64,000 nt of DNA from an uncultured Chloroflexia bacterium. GTDB lineage: Bacteria > Chloroflexota > Limnocylindria > Limnocylindrales > CSP1-4. Below are positions 2,272 to 20,246 of this stretch, in pieces. The DNA is taken from assembly GCA_963699965.1 (NCBI GenBank), contig CAVOVX010000007.1, positions 544,549-608,548 of the forward strand. Direction: 5' to 3'. A model generated the notes under the pieces. It was not told the DNA's origin, ran no database searches, and saw only the letters and a list, made by a program, of their open reading frames with translations. A program made the translations under genes and the position numbers. How positions within the stretch are numbered: the stretch's first letter is position 1; each line of letters opens with the position of its first letter.

Positions 2272-3078
2272 TCACCGATCGTGGTCCGGATCGAGCATCA
2301 CCACCCGGCCCGGAGCCCGAGCGCTGTCGACCTGTACGACGTGGTCGTGGAACGTCGGTGCCGACGTCCAGATCCTTTCGATGCTCGCATCGGAGCGGAA
2401 GATGGCATCCACGTAATAGGCCGGACCCGAGTGGGCCTCGGCGATGACCGCGGCGGCCCCGGCAGCTAGCCATCCAGCTGCGTAGTTGTCGGCTCGCTGG
2501 ATGGCAACCGAGAGGGTCGGCTCGGGACCGCCGGGCTCGGGGTTCCCGCTCGCGTAGCAAAGGTGGCTGAGCACCACGACCGCCCCCGGAGCGAGGTGGA
2601 CAAGCTTCGCCAGGTAGCTCTCACCGAAGTACTGATGAGCGTCGTCCCCGCGGCCGGCGATCGGGTTCAACCCGAGACCGTTCTGCGTCGGCGGATATGG
2701 CTGATCCCGGTACGGCGACGGCCAGCCGTTGCCGTGGCCGAGGTAGACCACCAACGACGCGCCCTGGAGGGCCCGGCGCACCCGAGGCCAGGTCGCGTTC
2801 GGCGAGTAGACCGTGACGACCTCGTTCGCGTGCCGGCGCGCGACGCTCGCGGCCTCGTCGGCCAGGCTCCGGTAGTAGTCGGTCAGCGAGCCGACCGGGC
2901 CGACGACGATCGCGACCTTGGCGTTCGTGCGCGAAGCCCCCCGGACGGCGGCGCCTCCGGCTCCAGGCACCACGGCCAGCGCGATGATCGTCGCCACGAG
3001 GATCGCTGCGACCATCGTCGTGCCATGCCCGCGGATGCGAACCTTCGATCTGTCGGTCGCGGTCATCGGCCGATCCAC
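2272..3078 (-). CDS. secreted hypothetical protein, possible caspase-like (clan CD) His/Cys fold
   Basis: 268-aa ORF. N-terminal TM/signal (MVAAILVATIIALAVVPGAGGAA). 'VVYLGHGNG' and 'VVVLSHLCYASG' lie about 50 aa apart, resembling the caspase HG…C dyad. Overlaps the subtilase stop by 16 nt. Confidence 0.4.
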   Translation of the reverse strand: MDRPMTATDRSKVRIRGHGTTMVAAILVATIIALAVVPGAGGAAVRGASRTNAKVAIVVGPVGSLTDYYRSLADEAASVARRHANEVVTVYSPNATWPRVRRALQGASLVVYLGHGNGWPSPYRDQPYPPTQNGLGLNPIAGRGDDAHQYFGESYLAKLVHLAPGAVVVLSHLCYASGNPEPGGPEPTLSVAIQRADNYAAGWLAAGAAAVIAEAHSGPAYYVDAIFRSDASIERIWTSAPTFHDHVVQVDSARAPGRVVMLDPDHDR

Positions 3079-5773
3079 GATCCACGACTCGAGACGAACC
3101 GGTCGACGAGGATCGCTCCGCGCATCCCGGAGGCCAGGCCGGCCGACGGCCCCAGTCGGACCGACTCGATCCGGTATGCGTGGGTGTCAAGCCCGCCCCG
3201 GCTCGTGGCGGCGAGGCCGTCGATCCACAGCCGAAGACGGCTCGACCTCGCCGCCGACCAGCCGATCTCGATGGCGTGGGCGCCGCTAGCGATCCGCACC
3301 CAGCGGGTGAAGGACGTCCCGCCGCTGCGTCGCGCTCCCGCTCGGATCCAGCAGCCGCTCGTCGTCCGGCGGTATTCGAGCGAGAGGACGGTTGTGCCCC
3401 GTCCGTCACGACCGGCGAACAGGACGAATTGCGCGTCCGGCCGTCGACGTCTTGCGCGGGTCGAGGGTGAACCGCGCGTGGTAGACCCGTTCCGCATGCG
3501 GGCTGGTGTCCGTGACGTAGGCGGGGGACGACCCGAGGATCGTGGCCGTGAGACCGAACTGCCCGGCGGTGGCGGCCGTCGGGACCACCCGGAGCCGGGC
3601 GGTCCCGGTCGCCGAGCTCCACCTCGAGAGATCCGCCGTCTCGAATCCTTCGGCGAACAGGCCATCGGTGGGCGTCACCTCAATCGCCGCCGAGCGCGGG
3701 CTGCCCCAGTTTCCCGCCGCGTCGCGCGCGCGGACACTCACGATCCGTTCGCCGAACGTTGGGCCGGCAGGGATGACCGCGCCGACATTCTCCGTCGACC
3801 CGTCGAAGGCGCCGTCGCTCGGAACCATCGCGTCGCCCGAGCCCTCGCCCGGATCCGGTCCGCTGAACCACTCGGCGGCGCCGATTGGAGCGCCGCCGGT
3901 GTCGGCGGCGGTCGCCTCGAGGCTGATCGACGTCGTGCCCTGCGACGGATCCGGCAGGCCGTGGATTGCCCCGATCGCCGGGCCCGTCCGGTCGACGATC
4001 AGCACGCTGGACGACAGGGACCCCCAATTGCCGGCCGCGTCGTGCCCGCGGACCAGGATCTCGTGGGTGCCTTCCGAGAGCGCCGCCTGGTCGGCCGCGG
4101 TCAGGCTGACATTGGCCGTGCCGAACACCGCGCCGGATCCAAGCGACATCGGCCTGCCGCTCCCCGGCGGTCCGACCGCGTCGATCCAGAGTTCGGCCCC
4201 GTCGACAACCGTCCCGCCCGTCATTCGATCGTCGACCACGGCACTGACCAGGACGTCCGCGAGGCCGTTCGACGGGTTCGGAGCGACGGTCGGCTGATCG
4301 ACGACGGGACCCACCTGGTCGCCTTTCTGGGTTGGACTGGCCGTCGGCGTGGGCGTCGGGGTGGGTGACGCGAGGAGCCGGTCGTAGGCAGCCAGGACGT
4401 CGATCCGACCCGCGCCGAACGTGTCGTCCGGCCCGCCGGGTCCGAGGTCGGTGGCCGAGCCGACGAGCGCCGCCTCGAGCTCATCCACGGTCGCCGCCGG
4501 CAGCGCGCCCCGGAGCAGGGCGATCGCTCCCGTCACGTGCGGAGCCGCATACGAGGTACCCGAGCCGCTGCCGTACAACCCGAATCGGTCGCTCGTCCTG
4601 ATGTCGACCCCCGGTGCCACGACCGTCGGAAACGTCGCTGGGATCGCTCGACCACAGTCACTTGGGCCGCGACTCGAGAACCCAGCGATCGCGTCGCTGC
4701 CGTCCACGGCTCCAACCGCGAATGCGCTCGGGTTGTTGGCCGGGCTGGCCGACGTGGACCCGCCCGGCCCGAAGTTCCCGGCGGCGAAGACCGGCACGAT
4801 CCCGGCCTCGACGAGGGCGGCGAGATCCGGTTCGAACGAAAGGTCGCACGAGGGGGCACCGATCGCCCAGGAGGCGTTGACGACATCCGGGGCATCGTCG
4901 GTGAGCGGGTTCGCGTCCGGGTCGAGCACCCACTGGAAGGCCTGGTGGATCCCACTCGACGACGCGACGCCGCTGTCGTTGAAGATCTTCGCCGCGATCC
5001 AGTGGGCGGCGGGCGCCACCCCGATCGAAGTGCCGCCGGTCGACCCGCCGACCGAGATGCCGAGCGTCTGCGTCCCGTGACCATTGAGATCGGCGGGCGT
5101 CGTGGGATGTTGACCGGATGGATCGAACCAGCTGTTTGATCCCCCTCGCCAGGCGGCTGCGAGATCCGGGTTCGCCAGGTCGACGCCGGTATCCAGGCTG
5201 GCGACCAGCGCGCCGCCACCCCGCTCGCCGATCGCCCACAGCTGGGGCGCGCCGATCTGGACGAGGTTCGCCTCGATCGGTGGGGAGGCCGCCAGATATG
5301 ACCTCGGGCTCGGGAGCGGCGATCGACGAGTCGACCGAGATCCAGCGGACCTCGGGTCGAGCGGCGAGCTCGCGGATGACGCGCGGCGTGGCGGTCACGG
5401 CAACCGCGTTCACGATCCACAGCGGCGTGACGGACCGAACGTCGGTCGAAGCGTGCCGCCCGAGCGCCAGGCGGACGCCGGCTTGACCGACGTCGGCCGT
5501 CCGTTTCAGCGCTCCGACCAGCGCCCGGCGGCGGGCCCGCCGATCCGCACTCCGAATGGCCCGCGGATCGACTTGGTCGCGAAGCGTTGCGATGACCGGC
5601 AGGCGGTCGCCGGGAGCCAGGCCGGTGAGGCGCCCCTCAAGGACCGGGTCGATGGTGCCGGCCGGTGCGGCACCCGACGTTGCGGGTGGCGCGATCCCGG
5701 CGACCGGACTGGCGGTCGCGCCGAGGAGCACGACGAGCGCAAGCGCGACCGCCCCTCGGCGACCCGGGCTCAT
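3063..5773 (-). CDS. subtilisin-like serine protease (S8) with I9 propeptide, Ig-like domains and shared C-terminal cassette; 2 frameshifts
   Basis: Signal peptide plus inhibitor_I9-like propeptide (5773-~5300). D motif 'VASLDTGVD' and H motif 'NGHGTQT' found by translating the reverse strand 5300-5020. Ser motif 'GTSYAAPHVTG'. Ig-like domains with 'AAGNWG'. Conserved C-terminal domain ending 'SRGSWIGR*'. Frame breaks near 5300 and 3440. Confidence 0.75.
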
Positions 5774-5789
5774 CCGCGTCGACCAGAGC

Positions 5790-7741
5790 TCATCCCGGCC
5801 ATCCCTCGAGCGTCCCGACGGGGCTGGGTCCGCGGGCTGGCTCGGGGATGGCCGGGACGCGTGCCCGACGGTAGCCGGCGTACGCCAGGACGGCCGCGAG
5901 CAGGATCGTGCCCAGGAGGGCGGCGGCCGTGAGGATCGGCGAGAGCGGCTCGTCGGAGACGACGATGCGGCGCGGGGTGACCGGGACAGCGGAAGGAACC
6001 ACGGTCCACGGTGTCGTGAGCCTGGCCGGCGGCAGGCCGGGGCGGTCGATCGTCACCTTGACCGACCAGTCGCCCGGAGCGGTGATCGAGTCGCCGGCAA
6101 GCTCGTAGCGCCCGTTCCCGATCGGCCGGGCAACGAGCTCGGATACGTCGCCGGCCCCGTCCGGCGGGACGACGGCAACTCGGACCTCGCCGATCGGGGC
6201 CGGAGCCGGGCGCCGGGTGTCGTGGATCCCGATCGTGACGAAGTTGCGGCCAGGACGGTTCGGGCGCACGTTCGACGAGGACGAGGAGGTCGTCGGCCTG
6301 TCCCGAGGTGGTCGTCGGCCGCGCGGCGGCCGGGATCGGGTCGTACTCCGGTCCGCGGGCCGGCGGCGTCACTCCGAGCACGGCCACGACCGCGATCACC
6401 GCGACCGCAACGGTCATCTCGGCGGCGATCGAGCGGGCCGGACGGCGGGCGGACAGCCAGCCGGCGGCCCGGGCGGGCAGGCGACGCTCGATGGCGCCGC
6501 GCAGACCTGGATGGGTCGTCAGGGCGTTCCGCAGGCCGAGGATCGCCACGATCAGGACGAGCCCGAGCTTGACGATGAGGACCTGGCCGTACGGGCTCAG
6601 GAACAGCGCGTCAATCGAGGCGACGAGCTGACCGGTCGCGAACAGGCCCGTGACGACGATCGCGCCGAGGCTGGCCGCGGCGACGAACCCGAACCGTCGG
6701 ACGATCAGCAGGGCGACCGAGCGACCGCTCTGATCCACTCGGGCGAGCGGCAGAACCGTGAGCACGAGCGCCACCAGCCCGCCGACCCAGATCGCGGCCG
6801 CCAGCAGGTGCACCGTGCCGACCAGCAGACCGAGGGGAAAGGCGATCACCGACGCGAGGTGGGTCGCCTCGGCTTCCGATACCGCGAGCAATCCGACGAG
6901 CCCGAGTGACGCCACCGACTCGGCGGCCGACGGCCGTCGGATCGGGACTCGCGTCGTCCAGGCGGTGAGTCCCACGAGCGCCGCGACGATGACGATTCCC
7001 GCAATCAGGTCGACGGCGAACCCGGTCTGAAGCAGGCGGAGTGGTCCTGCGCCGGGTACGTCGACCTGCGAGGCCTGGACGACAATCCGAAGCGAGCCCG
7101 CGACGAGCGCTGCGCCACCGGCCGCCATCGCCAGTCGCGCAAGGCGCCGGCGGGCAGACGCCACGGCGCGGAGCGACCCGCTCACGTCCGACCAGGCAAA
7201 CGTCGGCAGGCCGACGTGGAGCAGCACGACGGCACCGATCAGGATCGACAAGCCAAGCAGGTCGGCCCAGCGCGCGACGACTTCGACCGCTCCGATCAGG
7301 GTGGGCCCCGCGCTCGCGACCGCGACGGCGGAGGACGCCGCAGTCCCAATCCCGAAGACGAGCGTGCCCGTCGACGGATGGAGGTCGTCGTTGGAGAGGA
7401 CCCTCCACGAGACGCGGTATGCGTCGGCCGGCAGGCTGGGGAGCTCGAGGACGATGACCGACGAGCTGCCCGGCTCGGCGATCGACCCTGACCGGGATCG
7501 GCTGACCTGATGAGGCGACCAGCTCCACGGTCGAGAGATCGGCGGCGACGGCCTGGGTGAAGACGAGCCGGATCCGCTCCGGCGCCTGGGTCAGAACCGA
7601 GCCATCCGCCGGGTCTGCGCCGAGAAGCAGGGCGTGGCCGAGGACCGGCGCCGCCGCGGGGCCAAGGAGCGCGATCAGCAGTGCGAAGGCGCTGACGACC
7701 CTCAGGCCGGTCCGCCGTCCCACCTCACTGGGCCACGACAT
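5790..7741 (-). CDS. copCD: copper resistance CopC-CopD fusion membrane protein (YcnJ-like) with C-terminal YtkA-like domain; 2 frameshifts
   Basis: CopC-like N-terminus (GHALLLGADPADGSVL…RIRLVFTQAV). Eight-TM-helix CopD region in ORF 5770-7251. C-terminal beta-domain plus TM in ORF 5790-6269. Segments are in three different frames. Confidence 0.65.
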
Positions 7742-8201
7742 GCGCGAGCTCCAGCTTGCCGAACACCACGGTGACCGACAGCCCTGGCTTGATCGCGCCT
7801 TGCGTATTCCGGTAGAGCATGAACCCGGTCCGACCGGCGGCGACGGCGTGCTTGGCCGTCATCAGCGCAGCCGAGCGAACCGTGACGCCGGTGCTCTCGA
7901 CCCGGAGGACGGGAACGTTCGCGACGTCCTGCATCATCGCCAGCGCACGATCGCTGTCGAGGACAAGGAAGCGCATCTCGACGAGGCCGCCGTCTGCGGT
8001 GACCGCGACGTGGGTGATCCGGATCCCCAGGCTGCCTCGATGGCCGGGCTCGTGGGGACGGCTCCGTCCGCCGCGGGCGCCGATGCGAGCCAGCGGACCG
8101 CGAAGAGAGAGGCGGCCGTCGTCGCGATGACGGCTACCGCGACGACGAGCCACCTTCTGGCCAGTGCCGGCGCTTTGGGCGCCGACACCGGGACGATCTG
8201 A
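7725..8201 (-). CDS. small membrane-anchored hypothetical protein (frameshift near 8010)
   Basis: ATG at 8201 then a TM helix (LVVAVAVIATTAASLFAV). C-terminal ~100-aa domain in a second frame. Overlaps copCD start by 17 nt. Good candidate for a copper-handling accessory protein, but no clear motif. Confidence 0.35.
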   Translation of the reverse strand, partial: SDRPGVGAQSAGTGQKVARRRGSRHRDDGRLSLRGPLARIGARGGRSRPHEPGHRGSLGIRITHVAVTADGGLVEMRFLVLDSDRALAMMQDVANVPVLRVESTGVTVRSAALMTAKHAVAAGRTGFMLYRNTQGAIKPGLSVTVVFGKLELAHVVAQ

Positions 8202-8237
8202 TCCATGCTTGAACCTCCCAGCCCTGAACGTGTCTGC

Positions 8238-10223
8238 CTAGGGTCCGATGCGCGAGCCCTTGGTCGAGACGAATTCGTCGAAGTACTCGGCCTGGCCGCT
8301 GCCGCTCGCGCTCGTCCCAAGGCGGACGTTCTCGAGCCGGAAGCGATGGGTATCGAGTCGGCGCAGCGTGCGCTTGACCTTGCCGTCGATCGACAGGGAG
8401 AACGTCGCCCGCTTGCCGGACTTCCAGGCGATCTCGATGGCGTGGGGGCCATCCGAAATTGCATACCAACCGGTCGAGGTGAGGCCGCCCGGTCGCCGGA
8501 CGAGGGCCCGGATCGCCCAGGCTCCGCCGCCAGCGCTCGTGCGTCGCGCTTCGATCCGGAAGAGCTGCGTGCCGCTGCCCGTCCGACCATCGAAGATGGT
8601 GTGGGCGCCGCGGATCGACCCATTCGGGTCGTACCAGAAGCGGGCCCGATAGCTCGCCTCCCGGCGTGGGCTCTTGTCGACGACGAAGCCGGCGCCCGCT
8701 GCCGGATCGACCCGGAGGCCGATCGTCGAGCCCTTCAGGGCAGCGGCGGGGTCGGCGAGGGCGCTGCCGCCGACCGCCGACCAGCCGGCCACGCCGGACT
8801 CGAAGTTCTGGACGAAGATCGTGTCGGCGGCCGGAAGGATGTTCTGCACGTCGATGGTCGTGTCCGCGCAAGCACCCCAGTTCCCGGCCGAATCGCGGCT
8901 GTGGACGCTGATCGTGTGGATACCTTGCTGGAGCGCGACGTCGATCGTTCCAGAGAGCCCGACGGTGACCGCCGCCGGCACGGTCAGGGTCATCGCCTGG
9001 CCCCCACCGTTGAGGCAGGCGGCATCGACGAACCATTCGGCTCCGACGACGTCGGATCCGCCGGTAGCGGTGTCGTCGCCGGTCGCGCCGATCGCGACGC
9101 CAAAGCTCTCAGGCGGCAGCGCGTCGCTGAGGGCCAGCCCGGTCGTGGCCGGCCCGTCGGTGTCACCGGCGAGGCCAGCTCCGACGTTGATCAACGCCAG
9201 CATGCCGCCGAAGGCGACGATCCCGCCGGTCGACGCACCCGCGTTGTCGGTGTGGCCCGCGGCGCTCTGGATCGCCAGCCGGGTGCCTGCGGCGCCCGCC
9301 GGGATCGTGGCGACCGCATCGAGGGTCGCCCCGGCCGGGATCGTCTCGGCGACGACCTCGTACGGGTAGGTGAAGGGGTGACCGTCGCCGGCGACGATGG
9401 TCTGGTGCATGCCGAGCACGCCGACGGACTGGTTCTCGAGCCCGGCGTTGACATAGCGGAGGAGGACCCGACTGCCTGCGGCCGCCGAGATCTCCGGGAT
9501 GTCAGGGTGCGCCTGGCCGTTGAACAGCCAGTACGTCGGGTGGTACTCGCGCATGTCGAAGCCCGCGGGCGCAGCGTGGAGGGCCGTGTCGATCTCGCTC
9601 ACCACGAGGAGCTCCTCGGTGCCGAAGTCGCTGGCCGCGTCGCCATAGCCGGAGGACGGGTCCGACGTCGGACGGACGACCATGGCGCCGTACAGCCCCA
9701 TCGCGACCTGCTTGGCGCCGTCGGCTGTCGGGCCGGCCTCGTATAGGAAGGTCCCCGGTGTCAGACCGGGCAGGTCATACGCCTTCGAACCACCGGCGGC
9801 GGCCCCGACCGTGTCGTCCGCGATCTCGTCGTGGCCCGGGAAGGCCAGCGACGACGCGTCAGCCAGGTCGTTGTGGAGGACGATGTGAAGGGTCTCACCG
9901 GAGTTCGCGACGAGCGTTGGACCGGGCAGCTGGGCGGAACCGCTCGGCGCCGCGCTCGTGCCGAGCGCGTACCCCCAGATGTCGACCGGGCCGGCGCCCG
10001 GCAGGCTGAGGGTGCCCGTCTCGGCCCACAGGTGGCAGGTCCGGGTGGACCCCGACAGGGTGCAGGTGGCAGCCGGGAGTGGACCGGCACCCGGGCCGCC
10101 CACCGCGGCCGCCGCACCGGCAACCGCTGGCCGAGAGCTGCCGAGCACGGGGCTCGCCAGGAGCGACCCGAGGATCGCGATGGTGGTCGCGGCCGAGGCG
10201 ACCGTCAGGCTTCGCGCACGCAT
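8238..10223 (-). CDS. secreted multicopper-oxidase-like (cupredoxin) protein lacking canonical Cu ligands, fused to Ig-like and shared C-terminal domain
   Basis: Start ATG at 10223 preceded by a GAAGGAGAGA RBS. Sec signal MRARSLTVASAATTIAILGSLLASPVLG. 'LPGPTLVANSGETLHIVLHN' and 'KQVAMGLYGAMVVRP' align to the CueO/CopA motif-1 and motif-2 regions, but HWHG is replaced by FPGHD and WYHSH by FLYEAG. C-terminal 330 aa are shared with the subtilase and the giant protein. Confidence 0.65.
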   Translation of the reverse strand: MRARSLTVASAATTIAILGSLLASPVLGSSRPAVAGAAAAVGGPGAGPLPAATCTLSGSTRTCHLWAETGTLSLPGAGPVDIWGYALGTSAAPSGSAQLPGPTLVANSGETLHIVLHNDLADASSLAFPGHDEIADDTVGAAAGGSKAYDLPGLTPGTFLYEAGPTADGAKQVAMGLYGAMVVRPTSDPSSGYGDAASDFGTEELLVVSEIDTALHAAPAGFDMREYHPTYWLFNGQAHPDIPEISAAAGSRVLLRYVNAGLENQSVGVLGMHQTIVAGDGHPFTYPYEVVAETIPAGATLDAVATIPAGAAGTRLAIQSAAGHTDNAGASTGGIVAFGGMLALINVGAGLAGDTDGPATTGLALSDALPPESFGVAIGATGDDTATGGSDVVGAEWFVDAACLNGGGQAMTLTVPAAVTVGLSGTIDVALQQGIHTISVHSRDSAGNWGACADTTIDVQNILPAADTIFVQNFESGVAGWSAVGGSALADPAAALKGSTIGLRVDPAAGAGFVVDKSPRREASYRARFWYDPNGSIRGAHTIFDGRTGSGTQLFRIEARRTSAGGGAWAIRALVRRPGGLTSTGWYAISDGPHAIEIAWKSGKRATFSLSIDGKVKRTLRRLDTHRFRLENVRLGTSASGSGQAEYFDEFVSTKGSRIGP

Positions 10224-10248
10224 GGCGTGTCTCTCCTTCGTCGTCACG

Positions 10249-11552
10249 TCAGCAACCGCCTGGTGGATCGATCCGGATGAGCGTGAGCATCCCGCCGAAG
10301 CCGGCGCCGTAGTTGGTCGCCTCGTTGAGGGCGTGGCTATGGGCGACGTGGTAGTACTCGCCGCACTCGTTGTACGAGGTGATACCCGTCGGGAGCTCGT
10401 CCTGGACGCCGAGGTACGGGCTCCCGCTGTACCAGGTCGCGTCGTCCTTGTAGGTGATGTTCTGGGGCTGCGGGATCGTGACCGGGATCGGGTTCGTCGT
10501 CGGGTTCCAGTCCTTCCGACGTCGGTGCCAACTTGAAGGTGGACGTCCCAGGTCTGCCCGGCCCCGACCAGGACCGTGAACTTCTCGTACGACAGGTCCT
10601 CGCCGGCATCGGCCTTCGAGCAAGCGGCCGTCGCGGGCGATGACGCGGCCGTGGTTGCCGTGCGGGTGGAACGGGTGGTTGAGCGATGCCGACGTTCAGG
10701 TAGCGGATCAGCGCCGGATCGGGATTGCCCGCGGCGTCGTACGGCTCGATGTGGACGAGCGCGCTGTACGGCTGGTTCGGCAGCCACGCCGCGTCCGTTT
10801 GGCGCGATCGTGTCCGGGAAGCTCCGCCCGTTGATCATCCAGTAGCGCGGGTGGTAGGTGGTGCCGTCGTACGCCTGCCCACGCTCGATCGCCTGGTGGA
10901 GGTCTGGATCGACCTCGGAGAAGCAGCATCGTGTACTCGGTGCTGGCCTTGAACTTCGGTCGCGACGCGTCATAGGCCTAGTCGGGGTTGCCATGTCGGC
11001 CGGACGACGAGCGCGCCGTAGAGGCCCATCTGCACCTGCTTGGCCGGATCGGTGCCGCTCTCGTAGATGTACGTCCCGGGCTCGGCGGCGGTGAACGTGT
11101 AGGTCACCGAGCCGCCGTCCGGCTGCGGCCGGCTGGACGAGCGAGGTGACCTCGCTGCCGCTCGAGCTGCGGCTCGGCCGGGGCGCCGTCCGCCTGGACT
11201 CCGGTCTGACCCGGGAAGACGATCGAGACGGGCTCGGCCAGGTGTTGTCAGGGTGACCGTGACGTCGTCGCCCTGGTTGACGCAGAGCGTCGGCCCGGGC
11301 AGCTGGAAGGCGGTCGAGCCCGAGTCGCTGTAGCTCCACATGAAGATCGTGTTGCCGTCAGGGATGCTGACGTAGCCCGACGTGGCGTGCAGCGTGAAGC
11401 TCGGCGTCGGGCTGGCATCCGACGTACAGCACGATCCCGGACGCCGGAGGGGCGGCCGCGGTCGCGGCTCCCGCCCCCGACATCGTCGACATCGCGAGCG
11501 TCGCGGCGGCAACGAGGCCCAGCCGGCGTCGCGTGGAGGTGAGTCGAGTCAT
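10249..11552 (-). pseudogene. Tat-signal multicopper-oxidase-like paralog with degenerate Cu motifs, multiple frameshifts
   Basis: Tat-like signal MTRLTSTRRRLGLVAAATLA. 'FQLPGPTLCVNQGDDVTVTL', 'GTYIYESGTDPAKQVQMGLYGALVVRP' (no His). C-terminal 'YYHVAHSHALNEATNYGAGFGGMLTLI'. Pieces are spread over at least 4 frames. Confidence 0.5.
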
Positions 11553-11572
11553 CGTCGCATCTCCTCGTGCCA

Positions 11573-12912
11573 TCAGGCCGGGTTCGTGTTGGGTGCGGTC
11601 TGAGGTCCGAGGGTTCCCGTCGGGAAGACGTGGATCTCGGTCATCTGACCCCCGGGACCAGCCTCGCCCGGGTTGTGGAGGTAGGCGAGGTTGCGGTTGT
11701 AGAGGAGGATACGTCGTCTCGCTGCCAACGTCCGGCGCCGTGAACGATCGCGTCGACGCTCTCGCCCGGACCGATGTAGACGGTGTTGGTCAGGTAGCTC
11801 AGGTCCGTTCCATCGCGGCCGTTGAGGTAGGTCGCGTCCTTGCCGACGACCCGCATGGTCGAGGCCGTCGATCGTCATCGCGTGCTGCTGGAAGCCCAGG
11901 TTGACGAAGCGAAGGAGGACACGGTCCCCGCTGTTCGCGTGGACCAGCGACGAGATCGGCTTGTACTGGAGTTCGTCGTGGCCGGCAGGGGCAATGAGGT
12001 CGCCGCCCGGATCCGTACCACCGCCCGGCCCGACTAGGGTGTCCGGCTAGGAGCGCCCGTTGAGGAACCACAGGTCGGGGTCGTAATCCGTCCAGTCGTG
12101 CTCCTGGATGTGGGCGCCCTCGTAGTGCTCCTGCGCCCAGCCCTCGCTGAGGAACATGCCCCACTCGCGGTCGTAGGCGGTCGAGCGCGGGGAGGATGGC
12201 GCCACGCCGTCGTTGTAGACGTACTTGCCGGCCGGGATCGAACCGCCGCCGGCGTTCTGGGCCGGCCGGACGAAGATGATCCCGGTCATGCCCATGGACA
12301 CGTGCTCGATGTCCTCGAAGTGGCAGTGGTACATGTACGTGCCGGGGTCGTGCGGTCGGTAGAAGTACGTGAAGTTCGCGCCCGAGCGGGACGGCGACCG
12401 ACATCTCCGGGACGCCGTCGAACAACGGAAGCGCGTTGCCGGAAGCCGTGCCAGTGGATCGTGTGGGAGTCGGTCAGATCCGGTCGGACCGACAGGCCCA
12501 GGTTCGTCAGGTTGATCTGGACGTCATTGGCCAGGGCCGGCTCGTACTCGTCGACCCACAGCTGGGGCGCCGACGCCTGGAACTTCCCGCGCTGGGCCTG
12601 GACCTGGGTCGGCGTAAGACCGCTGACGTTCCGGAACCCGAAGCCCCACATCGTGAACGGAGGCGGAGCGAGGGGATCCGGCAGGAACGGCGCTCCCGGA
12701 GTCGGCCCGGCGACGCTGCCGCGAGCGAAGGTGAAACCGTCGGTTGCGGCGAGCGAGATGTGCTGGGTACCTGCGGCGGCGACCCGCGGAGCGGAGACGC
12801 CGGTTGGCAGGCCACGGAGGAGAGTGGCCCCGGCTGCCCCCGCCGCCGCGAGTCCGGTGAGCTTCATGAACGTCCGACGGTCGAAGCGCCGATCGAGCAT
12901 TCGCATGGTCAT
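11573..12912 (-). CDS. Tat-secreted multicopper oxidase (CopA/CueO-like), frameshifted at least 3 times
   Basis: RBS GGAGACG then ATG. Twin-arginine signal MTMRMLDRRFDRRTFMKLTGLAAAGAAGA. 'HTIHWHGF' and, after my manual re-framing, '…FTYFYRPHDPGTYMYHCHFEDIEHVSMGMTGIIFVRP' (HxH motif 2). Two frame changes occur within 40 codons at C/G runs. Confidence 0.6.
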
Positions 12913-12964: not shown

Positions 12965-15900
12965 TCACTTCCCGATGTAGGTGTTGCGGGTCGACATGAA
13001 CCCGTCGAAGAAGAGGGTTCCTCGGCTGGCCTTCGGCACCGACCCGACGAGCCCGAGTCGGACCCGGTCGAGCCGGAGACCCCTGGTATTGCCGGTGACC
13101 GCGTTCTTGCCCTTCCCGTCGAGGTAGAGCCGGAGGTAGCCGGTCGAGCTCGCCTTCCAGGAGATCTCGATCGCGGTGGCTCCGTTCCGGATCCGATACC
13201 AGGCCGAGCTTCGCTGTTGGCCATTGCGGAGCGTCAGGACCGCGCGGACCTGGTACTTGCCGTCGTGGCGTCGGTACTGGACCTGGAACAGGGACCTTCC
13301 TGTGGCCGGCTTGCCGACGAAGATCGTCTGCTGGCCGCTGCCCGTCCTGGCGCCATTCGGATCGAAGTAGAACCGGGCGTGATAGGTCGACTCGGCGCTC
13401 GGACTCGCGTCGGTCACGCCGGCCTCTCGGCGTCCGACGACCTTCACCGACATCCCCTGCGTCCCGAGCAAGGCCGCCGCCGGGTTGAGCTTCGCCTGGC
13501 TGGCTACCGCGACTGATGTCCACGGTGGGACGAGCGTCGGGCCCTCGAAGTCAGACTCGAGGAGGACCAGCGGCACGGTGTGATCGACCGCGATCGTGAT
13601 GGTCGCGACCGGTCCCCAGTTGCCGGCTGACTCCTGGGCGCGGAGGTTGACGAGGTGATCGCCCGCGCTCCATGCCGAGGTGTCGATCGTGGCGCTCGCC
13701 GAGGCCGTTGGGCTCCCAAACGTCCCGCTCAGGGGCGTTCCGGCGCCGGCGCCCGGGTCGGGGGCCTCGAACCACTCGACTGCACTGATGTTCGAGCCAC
13801 CGGTTGATACGTCGCTGGCGTCTGCGCCGAGACTCGTCGAGGCATTCGCCGGGTTCGGCGTAGCGAGCAAGTTGCTGACCATCGGACCGAGGAGATCGGA
13901 CACCGGGCCGGGCTGTTCGTCCGCTCCGACATCGAACGCGGTGCCGGTCGGTCGGCCGGCGGTGTCGATGTCGACCGTCGGCGCGTTCGTGCCGCTCTTG
14001 GTCGAGGCACCCGCGTCGACCGCCGGCGAGCCGGACGTGACGTGGTAGTCGCCCATCAGCGACGGCGGCAGATCCGCCGAGACGATCAGGTTGTAGATGA
14101 ACGCTGCACCCGCCCGCCAGGGCAGGAAGTCGACCGACACCGCGTAGGAGTCATCGACGATCACCGGGTTGGCCCCGATCTGGTTCGACGCGTCGGGCGC
14201 GATGACAGAGTTGGTGTTCTCGTTGAGGACCGAGTTCGTCGGATGGAGCGGGCCCAGGGCATCGACGACGCCCATGTCCCACAGGGTGATGTCACCAGGC
14301 CCGGCGGTGCCGAGACCATCGACGCGGAACGTGTTGCCGTCGATGACCCGGTTGCCCGCCCGGTTGTCCCAGAAGATGTTGTTGAACATCAGCGGGTCGC
14401 CGTACTCTGCGTGCCCGGGCGACAGCTCGGCCTGGAGCAGGACGCTGTTGCCGGAGTCGGACAGCCCCGCCGGGGCGGCTGGGGCCGGCCCGTTCGCCAC
14501 CCCGGCCGTCTGGGCCGTCGCCGTGGTCAGGTTCTTCATCACCGTGTTGTTGAAGAACCTGAGGTTCGTGGTGTCGTCGAGCGCGACGCCGCCACCCTCA
14601 TGGGCCGCAACGTTGTTCGCGATGATGTTGTTGTAGGCGTTGATCTGGTGGTCGCCGGCCATCAGGAACCGCAGGCCGCCGCCGTCGTCGTCGGACAGGT
14701 TGCCCTGGACCACGTTGTTGAAGATGTCGACCCTGCCCGAGCCTGGGGACAGGAGGTTGACGTCCGCTTGGGCCTCGCCGGCGACGATGATCCCGCCGCC
14801 CTCGTCGTAGGCACGGTTGAACCAGATCCGGTTGTCGTGGATCGAGCTGGTCGGATGGGCCGCGGTCGGGTTACTCAGGCCGTAATGGCTGAGGCCGCCG
14901 CCGTACTCGGCCGAGAAGTTGCCGCAGATGTCGTTGTGGTCGACCTCGTAGCCGTTCGTGCCGTCAAACAGGCCGACTCCGCCAGCCAGGTTCGATCCGC
15001 CGTTGGCCACGATCCGGTTGTGGGCGATCCGGAGGTTGTCGTTGTGCTGGTTGCCGACGTTCGGGGTGCCGACCCGGATGGCCGAGCCGTAGGCGCCACC
15101 GTTGCTCACGAGCACGTCGTTGGTGATCTGAAGGTCCCGGGCGTAGGCGTTGACGAAGATGCCTCCGCCCTGGACCGGATAGAACGGCTGGTTGCTCGGG
15201 TAGCCGAATTCGTCACCGTTCTTGATCGTCAGGCCGTCAATCGACGCCTTGAACGACGACCCGAACTCACCGTCTCGAGCGAGAACGTAGACGACCTGGC
15301 CCTCGTAGATGGCCTGATTGCCGTCCCAGCCAAGGCCGGACTGGAGGTTCTCGACCCGGTCCTGCCAGGCCGCGAAGTTCGTGGTCGCGAAACCCAGACC
15401 GTTGAGGATCGAGCCGAGCACGTAGCTGCCATCCGAGCGAACGCCGCCGGGGCCGACGCCCTGGAGCTTTACCGGTGCGTGGATGACGACGCTCTCGTAG
15501 AAGTCGCCGAGCGGTGTGAACTGGCCGGGCGTATTCGGGTAGACCACGACCACGCCGTTGTTGCCGACGGAGGCATCGATCGCGGCCTGGACGGTCGGGT
15601 AGGCGTGGCCCGGCCCGACTTCGTAGATCGGCGGGTTGTAGCCAATGCCGGTGACGTGGTAGGTCAGGCCGTTGATCGTCGACAGGCCGCTGTCGGCGGT
15701 GATCGAGAGCTGGTGCGGCCCGACCGGGACGCCGGACACGGTGGCGTGAATTCGCGGTCGCTCCACGAGTCAATCGTGATCGCGGTCCCGTCGAGGTCGA
15801 CGCTGCCGCCGCCCTGGCTGGCGCCGAACTGGTCGCCCTGGATGACGATGCTTGCGCCGGACGCGCCATACGGCGTATCGACGGCGAAGAGGACCGGACG

Positions 15901-18900
15901 GTTCGTCTCGACCTTGCACTCCGACGGATGGGTCGTCTGCTCGCCCGGAACCTCGATGACCGGAGCCGTCGGCATGAGGGCGACATCGGCCAGCAGGGTC
16001 AGACCCGGCCAGAGCTGCCAGTCGGACTCGAGCGTCCGGTACTGAGGCTGGTAGTCCGGGTTGGGCTGGCCGGGGGTTCCTGGGTCGTTGCCGACCAGGC
16101 GGTACACGCCAGGGCAGGGACCGGCCGGCAGCGGGCAGTTGTAGCTCGCGGTCGAGGGGAGGAGGACCTCGAAGAAGCCGTTCGGGTCCGAGTGCATCGT
16201 CGTGACCAGATGGCCCGCGTAGTCGTAGATGCCGATCGGCGCGTTCGGGACGCCGGCCTTCTCGCCGAAGTAGAACTCCTTCGGGTTCGTCCCCAGTGCG
16301 AGGTCCTCGACGACGGCGCCGTAGAGCCGACCCGGGGGCGGAACGGAGGCGAAGAAGAAGAAGCTCGGGGCGATCGACTTGCCGTTCTGGACCGGGACGA
16401 GCCGGGTGTCGCAGAGCGGCTTGCTCAGCCCTTCGTACGGGCTACCGCCGCCGTCGGCGAAGCCGGGGTTGTCGGTCGCGTCCGAACCGTCGACGCCCGA
16501 ACCGGCCACGTCGACGACGTGGAGTGCGCCGGCGCACGGCGGGGGCGGAACCTGCGGCGTGAACTGGTTACCGTCGAAGACGTTGACGTCCTCTTCGCGG
16601 ACGATCTGGAACTTCGGCTTGCCGAAGGCGTCATCCGGGCCCACGACCTCGACCAGGTAGTCGGCCGGAGTAAGGGCTTCGAAGTCGGCTCCATTGCAGA
16701 CGGGAGCGGACGGATCGGTGTCGTCGATGGTCCCGTTGAAGCAGCCGTCGCCGAAGCCGTAGTTGCCGTTGACGAGCGTGAACTCGGAATCGGCCCCACC
16801 CGGGGTCGTGTCCTCGGTCGGGCCCGTCTTGATCTGGTTGCCCATGAGCGGCGACTCGATGCACTGGTGACCGCCGGTCGTATCCGCCATGAACGGGAAG
16901 TCGATCTCGGCACCGACGCCGCCCTCGGACGGCGGCGCGCCGCGAGCGATGCAGTCCGTCGGACGGACGAACTCCTCGGTGATATAGGTGTTGAGGAGGT
17001 GGCCGTGGGCGTATGACCCGTCCGGAGCGAGCTCGTAGTGGTTGGCGGCATCGCACGGCGTGCCGCTGTTCGTCCCGCATGGAACGGGCAGGTACAAGTT
17101 GACCCGCATGCCGGGGATGCCGGGCTCGTAGTCCTCAGCCGCAGCCAGTCGCGGATCGAGCTCGTTGCGAGTGACCGCGTAGACGACCTCGCCGACGATG
17201 CCGCCGTTCGTGCCCGGGTCGTACGGGATGACGCCCCAGTCGACCCGCGACTTGAGGCCGTCCTGGTTGAGGACGGACAGGTCGACGCCGGCGCCGAGGC
17301 GGGTGGTCTCCGGACCGTTGTCGGCCTTGTAGGTGACGCCGGTCGTCATGAACAGGTCGTTGTAGGCCTCGAGGACCGTGAAGTAGCCGTACGGGTAGAC
17401 CTGCTCGAAGAGATAGTGGCCCTTCGAATCGGTCGTCGCGGTCTTGCTGCCGGCGTCCACGATGGCGTTGTCGCGCGACTTGAGCGCGACGCCGAAGCCG
17501 GCCAGGCCGGGCTCTCCGGCGTCCTGCCTGCCGTTGCGGTTCGTGTCGACGAAGACGGTCCCCTCGACCTTGCTGAACCAGTGCGACAACGCGAAGTCGC
17601 CGATGTCGACGACCTCGTTGTCGCCGACCACGGCGGTCGTGATCCCGAGCAGCAGGTTCTGCGCCTCGTCCCACATCGAGATCGAGTACGTGCTCGGCGG
17701 CACGTTCGGGATGTCGAAGACGCCATTTGTCGACCGAACGGCGTAGACGAGCAGCTCGTCGCCGCCCCGCTGCAGGTCGTTGAGGGCGATCCAGGCGTTA
17801 TGGACGGGGCCCTCGTCGGTGTCGCCGCCGGCCGGCGGCAGGTAGGACTTCGTCGAGCGGACAGCTCCCTTGATCTCGCCGCAGTTCGATCCGCACGGGA
17901 AGAGGAACGTGCTCCTTGGCTTGACGTAGCCGATGGCCGCGACGGCGACCGGGCCGCCGTTGACGATGAGCTCCGTGTCGTTGCCCGAGTACCCCTCGAA
18001 GAGCCAGGTATCCCAGTCATGGCCACCTTCGAGCGTGCTCGTCTGGATCCACGACTCACCGTCCGGTGGGACGACCTGCACGCTGTAGCAATTCGTGCCC
18101 AGGTTGGGGATCGTGATGACCCCATCGGGATCGGCAATGCACTCGCCGCCGGTCCCCGGGATGTAGACGAACTCGCCGGCCGAGTCGACGCCATAGTTCG
18201 ACGTGTTGCCGTTCGGGTCGACGCTGAGCGGCGGCTCGCCGCCGGGGCCATCGGGGTCGTCACCGACCTTGTAGTAGTCGGCGCACAGCGGGTTGCCGAA
18301 CCAGTCGGTGGTGACCTCGCCGAGGACGTCGGCGATGTGGGCCTTGAAGTGGTGGGTTGGACCCGCGGTGACCGGCGCATGCTCGCCCGGCGGGTCGAAC
18401 TGGCCGTTCGTCAGCGTGTCGTCGAAGATCTGGACGCGCAGCCGCCCGAGCTGGAGTGGCTCGGGAGTGAGCTGGACGACGAGCGGGCCGGCATCGTCGA
18501 TCTGCATCGCGAAGTGCCTGCCGCCGATCTTGAAGCCGGGCGCCAGGATCGAGATGAGGTACTTGCCGTTGGGGAGGTCGATCCCGGTCGTCCCGTTGAG
18601 CTCGGTCTGATCGCCCTGGGTGACCAGGTTGTCGACTCCGCCGGCGCCGCCGGTGAAGTTGTGGACCGACGGCCAGTCGCAGCCGTCCGGGTAATTCACG
18701 TTGGTCGCGGGGAAGCAGTCGGCCGCGGCCTGGTTGGGCTTCCCCGTGTCATCGACGTCGATCCGCCAGCGATATGGGCTGACCGCGCTCGAGTCGTCGA
18801 TGTTCACGACGCTCAGCGTCAGCGTGCTCGTCAGAGCCTGGGGAGCAGCAGCCGTGGCGTCATTCGACGGGCGCGCGGAAGCGAGGACGAAGCCGGAAGG

Positions 18901-19017
18901 CACGAGGGCACTGACGATGAGTCCGAGCAGGCTGATGAAGACGAATCCCTTGTACAAGCCGGACCGGCGGCCGGACGGATGCCCTGCCGCACCGTGAGTG
19001 CTCGAGTGCCCACTCAT
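12965..19017 (-). CDS. giant (~2,000-aa) secreted protein with SdrD-B/Cna-B-like repeats, right-handed beta-helix, Ig-like domain and shared C-terminal cassette; one frameshift near 15745
   Basis: RBS GGGAGGGAG then ATG at 19017. N-terminal anchor GFVFISLLGLIVSALV. 'VFVDTNRNGRQDAGEPGLAGFGVAL…TDSKGHYLF' is SdrD-B-like. PbH1-like 'NNIIANNVAAHEGGGVALDD…NNTVMKN' repeats. ORFs 15664-19218 and 12965-15766 read continuously ('…TAITIDSWSDREF|ATVSGVPVGPHQLSI…') if one base is adjusted. Confidence 0.65.
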
Positions 19018-19523
19018 CGGGATCGCTCCCTCCCTGGTCATCCGAATTCCTGAACGTCGGTTGTGCGCTGGTTCGGGTTGCTCGACGTAGCGGTCGCGGC
19101 CGGGGATCGATGCCGAGACGATGGGGAACGTCGGTGCCCCACTCGCCTTTTCGGCACGCCCCGGACATCGCTCGCCCGGCCGGATCGAATCGTCGTGGCC
19201 GCCGACCGCCGGCACCATCCGGTCGGGGGTACGAATGGCCCGGGGTGTTCACCCGGCTCCGACCCGGCAGAGTCCCGAACTTGAATTGGGGACGACCTGA
19301 CGCCGGTGTCGCCGGGCACCACCCGCCGATCGGAAGCACCAATCGATCGGGGTACCGATTTCTGGAGGCCCGACAGGACGAATGACCCGCCTCGAAATGG
19401 CACAGGCCCGACCGACCGAGGTACAATCCCGGGACCGTCGGTGCCACGCCCGCCAGGAGGTCGAATGAACCCTCCTGTGGCGACAAGCCAGCCGCACCAT
19501 CCCCAGCGCGGGGGAACTACGCG

Positions 19524-20246
19524 ATGCGCCTGAGCGGACGGACCGTCCTCGTGATCGGCGCCTTCCTCGGTCTGCTCGTGGTCTTTGCGACCGATCAGAT
19601 CGTGCCGGCAGCCAGCCAGTACCAGGCCCAGATGCGCCTGTGGTTCGCCGGCCGGGCGACGGGCGTGACCGCCTACGTCCTGCTGACTCTCCTGGTCGTC
19701 CTGGGGCTGATCCTCAGCCACCCCGTGAACCAGTCGACCTGGAAGCTGTCGAAGCGGCTGTTCCCGTGGCACGAGAACCTGTTCGTGTTCGTCGTGGCCT
19801 TTCTCGCCGCGCACATCGTCAGCCTCGTCCTCGACCCCTACGCGGGAGTCGGGATCCAAGGCACATTCGTGCCGGGTCTGTCGAGCTACCGGTCGGTGCC
19901 GGTCGCGCTCGGGAGCCTCGCGATGTACGCCCTGTTGCTGACCGGCCTCACCGCCCGCTACACCAAGCTCCTGCCGACCGGCTGGTGGCTCAAGCTCCAC
20001 CGGCTGTCGCTTGGGGTCTTCATCCTCGCCTGGACCCACGGGATCCTGGCCGGGACCGACTCGGACGCCTTCCGCCCGCTCTACATCGCGACCGGCCTGG
20101 CGGTCCTCGGCGCCGCCGCCTACCGCTACTGGGTGGCAAAGCGACGCCGCCCAACCTTCTCGACGAGCCTGCCCGAGGCAGCCACGCCGTCCGCAGCCGC
20201 ACCGCTCGCCGCCCGACCGGTGCCCCAGGAGGAGCCCAGCCGATGA
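19524..20246 (+). CDS. ferric-reductase-domain / MsrQ(YedZ)-like di-heme membrane protein
   Basis: Six predicted TM helices with His in the membrane (LILSHP, AAHIVSL, LKLHRLSLGVFILAWTHG with H-x13-H spacing). Transcribed divergently from the secreted-protein block. Confidence 0.5.
   Translation: MRLSGRTVLVIGAFLGLLVVFATDQIVPAASQYQAQMRLWFAGRATGVTAYVLLTLLVVLGLILSHPVNQSTWKLSKRLFPWHENLFVFVVAFLAAHIVSLVLDPYAGVGIQGTFVPGLSSYRSVPVALGSLAMYALLLTGLTARYTKLLPTGWWLKLHRLSLGVFILAWTHGILAGTDSDAFRPLYIATGLAVLGAAAYRYWVAKRRRPTFSTSLPEAATPSAAAPLAARPVPQEEPSR

Follow-up and report, generated by a model that had tools for sequence, protein, structure and literature searches.

Three tandem multicopper oxidase (MCO) genes of an uncultured Chloroflexia bacterium probably encode the alpha, beta and gamma chains of an obligate heterotrimer, which would act as one extracytoplasmic MCO with one active site; we put the probability of this reading at roughly 0.68. 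Its basis is that the copper ligands are divided between alpha and beta, with none in gamma, which points to a three-subunit oxidase with a single active site. The sequence pattern itself is established and so is the extent to which it is conserved, together with the synteny, the fold and the existence of natural beta-gamma fusions. The strict gene order, the co-inheritance of the chains, the fusions, the conservation of the replaced motifs and the copper-related gene neighbourhood also speak for the heterotrimer. A description of such a split three-chain enzyme was not found in the literature.

The gene triplet and the state of its reading frames

The window, a stretch of 64,000 nucleotides, carries the triplet on the minus strand (12912..11573, 11552..10249 and 10223..8238), as originally predicted, within the following set of genes:

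12965..19041, minus strand: giant protein, secreted or at the cell surface, whose gene opens the operon; a single 2025-aa gene in sibling assembly L001
11573..12912, minus strand: alpha subunit gene, type-C-like two-domain MCO; intact 459-aa ORF in sibling assembly L002
10249..11552, minus strand: beta subunit gene; intact 430-aa ORF in L002, identical to P0121
8238..10223, minus strand: gamma subunit gene, intact, 661 aa; two ligand-free cupredoxin domains and a C-terminal extension
7725..8206, minus strand: small conserved gene, ~160 aa, fifth of the operon; one frameshift in the window
5790..7741, minus strand: CopC-CopD fusion, YcnJ-like; Pfam CopC 1.8e-17, CopD 2.3e-15

Each of the three MCO genes scores above the Pfam cut-offs for Cu-oxidase domains, and hhalign comparisons (beta-gamma E 1e-64, alpha-beta 3e-44, alpha-gamma 3e-36) identify them as paralogs over both cupredoxin domains, bearing out the proposed MCO ancestry of all three.

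In the window, neither alpha nor beta is an intact ORF. Together they are interrupted by ~20 one-base indels and two TAG codons: five one-base insertions and an in-frame TAG at 12048-12050 in alpha, and ~14 indel events and an in-frame TAG at 10978-10980 in beta. Such damage could be taken to mean that both are decaying pseudogenes in this organism, but we consider this the least probable of the readings weighed here. Intact ORFs (alpha 459 aa, beta 430 aa) are present in L002 and in L008, a MAG locus of 99% identity, both being assemblies of the same population; GC3 holds at 0.9-1.0 within the shifted frames, and every frameshift seen in the frame plot runs in one direction. The indels are mostly one-base C or G insertions outside homopolymers and concentrate where the assemblies also show synonymous-type substitutions, and at the alpha TAG (12048) L002 has TGG, the family consensus being Tyr. 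Taken together, these features make the breaks look like consensus errors of the collapsed-haplotype kind. An alternative alpha start called in L002 corresponds to window position 12957.

Complementary copper ligands in alpha and beta

The relevant motifs of alpha and beta are as follows:

12859..12891, minus strand: alpha Tat export signal, RRFDRRTFMKL; NCBIfam TAT_signal 17.7 against a cut-off of 16.7
12445..12465, minus strand: alpha domain 1, H-T-I-H-W-H-G (HTIHWHG); invariant in 77/77 complete orthologs
12287..12331, minus strand: alpha domain 1, Y-H-C-H-x5-H-x3-G-M, YHCHFEDIEHVSMGM; invariant in 77-78/78
11864..11890, minus strand: alpha domain 2, degenerate motif QQHAMTIDG; HSH of 2ZWN replaced by TID
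11672-11698, minus strand: alpha domain 2, second degenerate motif NRNLAYLHN; HDH replaced by YNR
11200..11223, minus strand: beta domain 1, degenerate motif IVFPGQTG in place of HxHG, from alignment to domain 1 of 7RAB and 9CCK
11048-11071, minus strand: beta domain 1, second degenerate motif YIYESGTD; HCH replaced by ESG
10648..10677, minus strand: beta domain 2, H-P-F-H-P-H-G-N-H-G (NHPFHPHGNHG); HPH, two predicted trinuclear-cluster ligands
10321..10356, minus strand: beta domain 2, Y-Y-H-V-A-H-S-H-A-L, YYHVAHSHALNE; HSH, two predicted trinuclear-cluster ligands

The motif strings on which the original prediction was built (HTIHWHG, YHCHFEDIEHVSMGM, YIYESG, FLYEAG and LAFPGHDE) are all present, but its description of the first gene as CopA-like with intact His motifs does not hold. 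Alpha falls far short of the family cut-offs, with 46 bits for CopA (TIGR01480; cut-off 479) and 22 for CueO (cut-off 525). Among solved structures, its closest relatives are 2ZWN and 3G5W, both type-C two-domain MCOs, and only the domain-1 set of ligands is kept. By alignment to the HTIHWHG of these two enzymes, the first His of that motif is a type 1 (T1) copper ligand and HWH provides two ligands of the trinuclear cluster. The second motif, present in 119/120 metagenome homologs, aligns with YHCHVNVNEHV..GM of 2ZWN and 3G5W and provides the T1 Cys, His and Met together with two cluster His flanking the Cys. No HxH pair occurs in domain 2 in a census of 81 orthologs. As far as sequence can tell, alpha (AF2 pLDDT 85.5) thus holds a T1 copper site and four cluster His, in domain 1 only.

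Beta shows the converse arrangement. Both downstream paralogs had been described as having their ligands replaced and their motif 1 altered to FPGHD, which is correct for gamma (LAFPGHDE, every ligand lost); beta, however, reads FPGQ, and the HPH and HSH of its second domain had been overlooked. From the alignments, beta domain 1 is predicted to be ligand-free and domain 2 to carry four trinuclear-cluster His: P-x-H-P-H is found in 84/84 orthologs and 120/120 metagenome homologs, and H-[S/N]-H (S in 73, N in 11) in 84/84 and 117/120. The label of pseudo-enzyme therefore does not suit beta, as these four invariant His are exactly those that alpha lacks. Domain 2 has no Cys, and hence beta has no T1 site. 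The degenerate motifs S-I-x-F-P-G-Q and Y-L-Y-E-S-G are themselves highly conserved in the census of 84 orthologs. The AF2 model of beta (pLDDT 88.2) has 2ZWN and 3G5W as its best folds, at target-normalised TM-scores (TMt) of 0.74-0.77.

Across orthologs from ~80 genomes of Chloroflexota and Actinomycetota, the complementary pattern is invariant (alpha 77-78/78, beta 84/84, gamma 84/84), and it recurs in 119/120 alpha and 117/120 beta homologs from metagenomes. Alpha and beta sum to exactly 10 His, 1 Cys and 1 Met, to which gamma adds none; the intact sequences do not restore all ligands to the paralogs, and complementary halves appear instead. In principle, the paralogs could also work independently of one another, as monomers or homotrimers whose sites are non-canonical: alpha transferring electrons through its T1 site and having a partial cluster, beta binding some other arrangement of metal, and gamma being structural. 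The differing export routes of alpha and beta speak for this, but two half-sites, each invariant in ~80 genomes, would have to function singly even though they sum exactly to the canonical set, and the absolute co-occurrence and co-evolution of the chains would stay unexplained; we give it a small chance of being correct.

The Tat signal reported for the first gene is confirmed (17.7 versus 16.7) and is largely particular to it: a strict Tat motif is found in 34/81 alpha, 0/84 beta and 0/84 gamma sequences, and a relaxed pattern of RR plus a hydrophobic region in 77/81, 18/84 and 12/84, respectively. Export of alpha by Tat and of beta and gamma by Sec would require the cluster to be assembled outside the cell, which counts against the heterotrimer.

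Gamma, gene order and copper context

9825-9848 (LAFPGHDE), 9726-9749 (FLYEAG), 9381-9425 and 9237-9266, minus strand: gamma degenerate motifs
8241..9086, minus strand: gamma C-terminal cassette, ~280 aa, Ig-like and jelly-roll-like

An HxH pair is absent from every ligand position of gamma in 84 orthologs, and this loss, together with the surface-type C-terminal cassette, fits the proposed role of scaffold subunit. The alternative proposal of a metal sponge is not borne out, as a search of gamma for His- or Met-rich tracts found none and the N-terminal 1068 columns of the giant protein contain no invariant His or Met. With alpha below the CopA and CueO family cut-offs and devoid of domain-2 ligands, and four invariant cluster His kept in beta, the overall scheme of a complete CopA-like oxidase with two MCO-fold pseudo-enzymes or metal sponges has a very slim chance, although it correctly anticipated a ligand-free gamma and a downstream CopC-CopD.

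The cassette, which gave no match in a Pfam search, was rightly described as shared: two genes nearby, those of the giant protein (12971-13825) and an S8 peptidase (3069-3900; tblastn E 8e-40 and 4e-30), also carry it at the C-terminus. A C-terminal module common to gamma and the giant protein is found in only two other lineages.

The order giant, alpha, beta, gamma, small membrane protein is kept in 80/80 genome loci from two phyla, with short intergenic gaps or overlapping genes, and CopC/CopD usually follow. Alpha, beta and gamma are each monophyletic, and their pairwise distance matrices correlate (r = 0.91-0.96). The replaced motifs FPGQ, YLYE[SA]G and Y[DN]R are highly conserved across orthologs, which fits retained interfaces rather than decay. 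In two lineages the same operon encodes natural beta-gamma fusions (P0241 and P0242), with a linker of 115-470 aa between beta domain 2 and gamma domain 1, and each is preceded by an alpha with domain-1 ligands only.

These observations bear on whether gamma belongs to the enzyme at all. The ligands lie on alpha and beta only, and gamma evolves faster than either, has long C-terminal extensions that vary between lineages, and in L090 is a tandem of two ligand-free units. The enzyme might thus consist of alpha and beta alone, as a heterodimer or an alpha/beta-only oligomer, with gamma, encoded in the same operon, being a pseudo-enzyme or adhesin of the cell surface that has no ligands and no part in the enzyme. 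We consider this unlikely, though the strongest of the alternatives: a ring of two-domain MCO chains is completed by three of them, and it is trimeric enzymes that alpha and beta match best. Gamma is a full-length paralog with both domains and conserved motifs at interface positions; 84/84 loci have it, and two lineages have it joined covalently to beta.

The giant gene lies 5' of alpha in every locus of sufficient length; in the window it is read as two ORFs, of 1184 and 933 aa, because one nucleotide is missing near 15700. Its product matches SdrD_B, CarboxypepD_reg and TIG in Pfam (orthologs have weak beta-helix/NosD-like matches), and its N-terminal 1068 columns include 241 positions at least 90% conserved and 10 invariant Cys. 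The small gene follows gamma in 74 loci; its product has a transmembrane helix at the N-terminus and a beta-rich domain, and matches nothing in Pfam, NCBIfam or PDB. This gene (7725-8206) intervenes before the CopC-CopD fusion, which is therefore downstream of the triplet but not, as had been thought, immediately so. The fusion gene encodes 649 aa in L002, where it shares 17 nt with the end of the small gene, and is frameshifted in the window. The suggested link to CopC/CopD is conserved, with CopC downstream in 58-65 and CopD in 57 of ~84 loci. Regulators encoded nearby are similar to response regulators of the CopR type and to CopY, with matches below curated cut-offs.

A proposed heterotrimeric oxidase and its relatives

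In two-domain MCOs, the cluster residues come from two protomers of a trimer (PMC13151041). The best matches of alpha and beta by both sequence and predicted fold are trimeric type-C enzymes of this kind, mgLAC (2ZWN) and the Nitrosomonas europaea blue copper oxidase (3G5W), which likewise have two cupredoxin domains per chain. Like alpha, they have their T1 site in the N-terminal domain, with HxxHxH and HCH-x5-H-x..M motifs that alpha shares, and each cluster sits where domain 1 of a chain meets domain 2 of its neighbour, as we propose here. In those enzymes, however, one gene encodes all three chains of the trimer, which has three T1 sites and as many clusters, whereas the present system has three distinct paralogous chains, none with ligands in both domains; no more than one T1 site and one cluster could form in each trimer. 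The present chains are also ~100 aa longer, and the gamma extension spans 280-650 aa.

We envisage that triplication of the gene for a homotrimeric type-C MCO, followed by complementary ligand loss, produced a pseudo-threefold heterotrimer, whose physical assembly, 1:1:1 stoichiometry and copper content are inferred. Alpha, exported by Tat, would contribute the sole T1 copper (His, Cys, His, Met) and four cluster His from domain 1, and beta, exported by Sec, the other four from domain 2, placing a single O2-reducing cluster at the interface of beta domain 2 and alpha domain 1. Electrons would pass from substrate to the alpha T1 site and through the H-C-H triad to the cluster. Ligand-free gamma would close the six-domain ring, its domain 1 meeting alpha domain 2 and its domain 2 meeting beta domain 1, and its variable C-terminal modules may anchor the complex to the cell surface. 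The tandem gamma of L090 would bring the count to eight domains, for which a simple six-domain ring does not account. Beta domain 2 and gamma domain 1, joined in the fusions, are non-adjacent in the proposed ring, though the linkers are long.

The Bacillus sp. PL-12 complex Mnx, in which MnxG is joined by MnxE3F3, is likewise a multi-subunit MCO from one operon, and its accessory subunits are needed for activity. MnxG is nonetheless a complete six-domain MCO and MnxE and MnxF are small non-MCO proteins, and the active site is not split between chains. CopA/PcoA and CueO, from copABCD-type loci, resemble the present system as exported, Tat-dependent MCOs beside CopC and CopD with copper-type regulators nearby. 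Unlike alpha and beta, each of them unites all four motifs in a single chain of three domains; alpha and beta reach only 40-46 bits against 479 (TIGR01480) and 22-24 against 525 (CueO) and have no Met-rich insert, and the locus has no CopB.

The proposed assembly would amount to a ceruloplasmin-like six-domain ring built from three chains. Six-domain MCOs reportedly arose from a triplicated two-domain unit, in the scheme of Nakamura and Go (2005); a classification into two-, three- and six-domain MCOs is cited in PMC7036934. Ceruloplasmin and hephaestin are six-cupredoxin rings with one trinuclear cluster at one interface and the others ligand-free, as proposed here, but ceruloplasmin is one polypeptide with three T1 sites, in contrast to the single T1 site here and the three separate polypeptides, reduced to two where beta and gamma are fused. 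The split MCO is bacterial, and its origin is independent of ceruloplasmin. Its most likely role is in copper handling, for example the oxidation of Cu(I) in a manner that feeds or relieves CopC/CopD.

Results

The operon, which includes three paralogous genes of the multicopper oxidase (MCO) family (alpha, beta and gamma), lies on the minus strand in a region of 70% GC. The genes considered here are:

5790-7741, minus strand: CopC-CopD gene
7725-8206, minus strand: small gene (~160 aa)
8238-10223, minus strand: gamma, third MCO paralog
10249-11552, minus strand: beta, second MCO paralog
11573-12912, minus strand: alpha, first MCO paralog
12965-19041, minus strand: giant surface-protein gene
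19524-20246, plus strand: 240-aa polytopic membrane protein, divergent from the operon
21610-23576: NarL-type response regulator and histidine kinase, downstream of the 240-aa membrane gene

By GC3 frame plot and three-frame translation, gamma is a single intact frame of 661 aa, and alpha and beta show repeated frame hops of constant direction, with one in-frame TAG each. The reading of alpha and beta as pseudogenes was rejected on the strength of intact copies elsewhere: L002, a sibling assembly and one of two ENA metagenome contigs on which the exact gamma protein is present, has intact ORFs for alpha (459 aa), beta (430 aa) and CopC-CopD (649 aa), and the same three genes are uninterrupted in L008, a 99% identical MAG locus ('uncultured Chloroflexia bacterium MFD02242.bin.2.81'). 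Gene decay is also countered by a three-way alignment that included the second sibling assembly, L001, in which indels and substitutions fall in the same 2.5 kb of two independent assemblies: window 10000-12500 is a hotspot both in the window (13 insertions, 32 substitutions) and in L001 (~7700-10200 of that contig; 53 insertions, 115 substitutions), gamma is near-identical across the three assemblies, and most flanking sequence differs little. The extra bases of the window are single C or G residues outside homopolymers, amid synonymous-type substitutions. Both TAG codons, at 12048-12050 in alpha and 10978-10980 in beta, read TGG (Trp) in L002; at the alpha site the family consensus residue is Tyr and the middle base is A in L001 too, which makes this TAG a possible per-base mixture of a TGG and a TAC haplotype. 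Overall, the breaks in alpha and beta look like the product of two haplotypes merged into one consensus rather than of gene decay, the likely cause being co-existing strains with divergent alpha-beta alleles that were collapsed by the long-read assembler, and the intact L002 sequences were therefore used as corrected translations. The CopC-CopD and small genes are likewise frameshifted in the window and intact in L002, and the giant gene, a single gene of 2025 aa in L001, is broken in the window by a one-base deletion near 15700 that leaves two overlapping ORFs (1184 and 933 aa).

All three proteins pass the gathering score of the Pfam Cu-oxidase, Cu-oxidase_2 or Cu-oxidase_3 families (alpha 54, 53 and 35 bits; beta 46 and 29; gamma 39; cut-offs ~21), and their paralogy spans both cupredoxin domains (beta-gamma E 1e-64, 37% identity; alpha-beta 3e-44; alpha-gamma 3e-36). 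The original prediction described the first gene as a CopA-like oxidase with intact His motifs, followed by two paralogs with replaced copper ligands. Its motif strings were found where it placed them, and its observation holds in part; the ligands of alpha, however, are confined to the N-terminal domain (d1), where SHTIHWHG (HxxHxH) and YHCHFEDIEHVSMGM (HCH-x5-H-x4-M) provide a complete type-1 (T1) copper site and four His of the trinuclear cluster. In an alignment with 2ZWN, a type-C two-domain laccase, the second domain (d2) of alpha has TID in place of HSH and YNR in place of HDH. Beta has lost its d1 motifs (HxH to VFP in VFPGQ, HCH to ESG in YIYESG) but retains NHPFHPHG and YYHVAHSH in d2, a pair of motifs that the description of this gene as ligand-replaced had overlooked. 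Gamma has zero copper ligands at the motif positions. The tally is thus six His, one Cys and one Met for alpha, four His for beta and none for gamma; no single polypeptide among the three contains the full set (ten His, one Cys and one axial Met, Leu or Phe), and the sum of alpha and beta matches the canonical complement of ten His, one Cys and one Met exactly.

Membership in known MCO families was then considered. Neither CopA (TIGR01480; alpha 46.4 and beta 40.1 bits vs a cut-off of 478.95) nor CueO (NF008205; 22.3 and 24.3 bits vs 525) accommodates these proteins, an identity also excluded by their domain count of two rather than three. The AlphaFold2 models of alpha and beta (pLDDT 85.5 and 88.2) instead have the type-C two-domain MCOs 2ZWN and 3G5W as their top Foldseek matches, ahead of CueO and laccases (target-normalised TM-score 0.70-0.77), and share the two-cupredoxin-domain protomer and domain arrangement of those structures. 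What defines type C is a T1 site placed in the N-terminal domain (PMC13151041), which is where alpha has it (H, C, H and M invariant) and where beta and gamma have none; cluster His pairs in both domains of one chain, which type C also has and which give its homotrimer three clusters, are absent from alpha, beta and gamma alike.

This distribution of ligands is widely conserved. Homologs of alpha, and likewise those of beta, number in the thousands, all with generic names only. Three loci found through alpha homologs, in Planosporangium, Roseiflexaceae and Anaerolineae, have the order giant, alpha, beta, gamma, small gene, then CopC or CopC-CopD. When a beta profile was run against a collection with one genome for each GTDB species, 346 stretches matched, and the five-gene order was identical in 80/80 loci fetched, as far as their contigs extend. 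These loci span Chloroflexia, Anaerolineae, Ktedonobacterales and many Actinomycetota, the habitat of the module being soil and freshwater members of Actinomycetota and Chloroflexota; cultured hosts include Kribbella, Nocardioides, Micromonospora, Nonomuraea, Sphaerisporangium and Pengzhenrongella. In a ligand census of 81 alpha, 84 beta and 84 gamma sequences, the alpha motifs H-T-x-H-W-H-G-F and Y-H-C-H-F-E-D-x-E-H-x-x-M-G-M were invariant (77-78 of 78 complete sequences), and the d2 His pair was found in none of the 81. Every beta sequence has P-x-H-P-H (84/84) and H-[S/N]-H (84/84) in d2, none of the 84 has ligands in d1, and the 84 gamma orthologs have none at any position. The substitute motifs S-I-x-F-P-G-Q, Y-L-Y-E-[SA]-G and Y-[DN]-R are strongly conserved in their own right, and metagenome homologs follow the same pattern (alpha 119/120, beta 117/120). 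Each paralog is monophyletic, with beta and gamma as sisters; the pairwise distance matrices of the paralogs correlate at r = 0.91-0.96, and gamma evolves fastest. Alpha, beta and gamma each have one signal peptide per ORF, which in alpha is a Tat signal (77/81 by a relaxed pattern, passing NCBIfam TAT) and in beta and gamma mostly is not. Conserved Cys pairs occur in beta and gamma, and the sole conserved Cys of alpha is its T1 ligand.

When 1.84 billion representative proteins were searched exhaustively by profile, the two top-ranked long proteins, P0241 (1156 aa) and P0242 (884 aa), proved to be true beta-gamma fusions. Both consist of a beta part with HPH and HSH, a linker of 115-470 aa and a ligand-free gamma part, and both are encoded with an alpha bearing HWH and HCH only and are followed by the small gene and then CopC-CopD. 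The P0241 fusion is preceded by the giant-protein gene and alpha; on the short contig of P0242, only a 240-aa upstream gene fragment lies ahead of alpha. Three other candidates (P0263, P0270 and P0361) are frameshift-merged gene calls. As Rosetta-stone pairs, the two fusions are evidence that beta and gamma are parts of one assembly. A further locus, L090, has a tandem gamma-gamma gene (4112-6202) after alpha and beta, with four ligand-free domains and a dockerin-like end. A separate database protein, P0374 (745 aa), has two two-domain units and a C-terminal cupredoxin, the first unit fully liganded and the second with its d1 ligands lost; multi-unit two-domain MCOs seem to have lost part of their ligands on more than one occasion.

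The giant and small genes belong to the fixed module in every locus, contig permitting. The giant is a highly conserved surface protein of 1,800-2,000 aa, in whose N-terminal region (~1050 aa; loci L003-L087) 241 of 1068 columns are conserved at >=90%, including 10 invariant Cys that likely pair as five disulfides; Gly, Pro, Asp, Asn and aromatic residues are also invariant at many positions. None of the 241 conserved columns is an invariant His or Met; a copper-sponge role was rejected on this ground, and the giant is not an obvious copper binder. Such conservation, unusual for an 'adhesin-like' protein, suggests that the giant has a specific function with the oxidase, structural or catalytic, and is not a generic stalk. 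A copper chaperone was considered for the small protein and rejected: it matches nothing in Pfam, NCBIfam or the PDB (best E 1.5) and lacks a conserved His/Met/Cys motif.

The giant and gamma proteins of the window also share a C-terminal cassette, which may serve as a surface-anchoring or sorting module peculiar to the lineage.

Occurrences of the ~280-aa cassette (Ig-like plus jelly-roll-like) in the window, all without a Pfam match
3069-3900: C-terminus of an S8 peptidase
8241-9086: C-terminus of gamma
12971-13825: C-terminus of the giant protein

Being present in 3 lineages only, the cassette was rejected as a general giant-gamma link. In another locus, L014, the C-termini of gamma and the giant are 82% identical.

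The neighbouring genes point to the role of the module. The L002 CopC-CopD protein passes the Pfam cut-offs for CopC (64.5 vs 23.3 bits) and CopD (57.3 vs 32.1 bits), with the CopC domain followed by the CopD membrane domain as in YcnJ-like fusions, and scores below the NCBIfam equivalog cut-offs. Its gene overlaps the small gene by 17 nt in L002, which suggests that the two are translationally coupled. In 57-65 of ~84 loci the small gene is followed by CopC or CopD. A two-component system is found no more than 10 kb away in 45-48 loci, and its response regulator is closest, below cut-off, to the heavy-metal CopR/SilR/CztR group; a CopY/TcrY-like repressor occurs in Roseiflexaceae loci. Because it travels with CopC/CopD, regulators resembling the CopR type and a CopY-like repressor, the module is probably involved in copper handling, for example surface Cu(I) oxidation coupled to CopC/CopD. 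The 240-aa membrane protein weakly resembles cytochrome b561, below threshold (21 bits vs a cut-off of 30), and could be a membrane redox partner.

Discussion

The original prediction, of a CopA gene with two dead copies, is only partly supported in its interpretation. Judged by its sequences, the locus is best read as a conserved, apparently undescribed split MCO: an obligate alpha-beta-gamma heterotrimer with one active site, in which the 12 ligands are distributed over two chains and a ligand-free gamma closes the ring, a reading to which we assign a probability of roughly 60%. Outside the membrane, alpha, beta and gamma would assemble into a pseudo-threefold ring, whose sole possible cluster would lie between beta d2 and alpha d1, fed by the alpha T1 site via the H-C-H triad. 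The alpha d2/gamma d1 and gamma d2/beta d1 interfaces would be copper-free, and gamma, besides closing the ring, would anchor the complex through its variable C-terminal modules. The ligand census permits exactly one cluster per alpha-beta-gamma; the six-domain ring itself, like the assembly, stoichiometry and copper content of the complex, we infer. A simple six-domain ring does not explain the tandem gamma of L090.

Complementarity of the sequences argues for a heterotrimer rather than a type-C homotrimer. Every MCO that we found described is a single chain or homo-oligomer with the full ligand set in each chain, and neither solved structures nor the literature found in searches for heterotrimeric or heteromeric MCOs or laccases included one built of different paralogous subunits. 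The sole 'heterotrimer' match, Nmar_1354, is an alpha-alpha-alpha' assembly in which one chain is without its pendant cupredoxin domain, and not one of different paralogs. MCOs of the ceruloplasmin type have six domains in one polypeptide, whereas here they are encoded by three separate ORFs, and the only fusions found, beta-gamma, have four.

If this reading is correct, the split oxidase would be a new quaternary class within a much-studied family, joined in a five-gene module with surface and small membrane proteins, and of interest to bioinorganic and evolutionary biochemists. It would also show paralog subfunctionalisation as a route that locks in an obligate hetero-oligomer. Thousands of annotated 'multicopper oxidase' proteins in Actinomycetota and Chloroflexota would be inactive when expressed singly, a caution for laccase bioprospecting. 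As the unfused bacterial counterpart of six-domain ceruloplasmin, the complex would represent a living intermediate on the path proposed to lead from trimeric two-domain enzymes to oxidases with six domains. Cultured isolates carry the module, which makes experiments feasible, and the origin of the ceruloplasmin type from trimeric two-domain ancestors would become open to experimental test.
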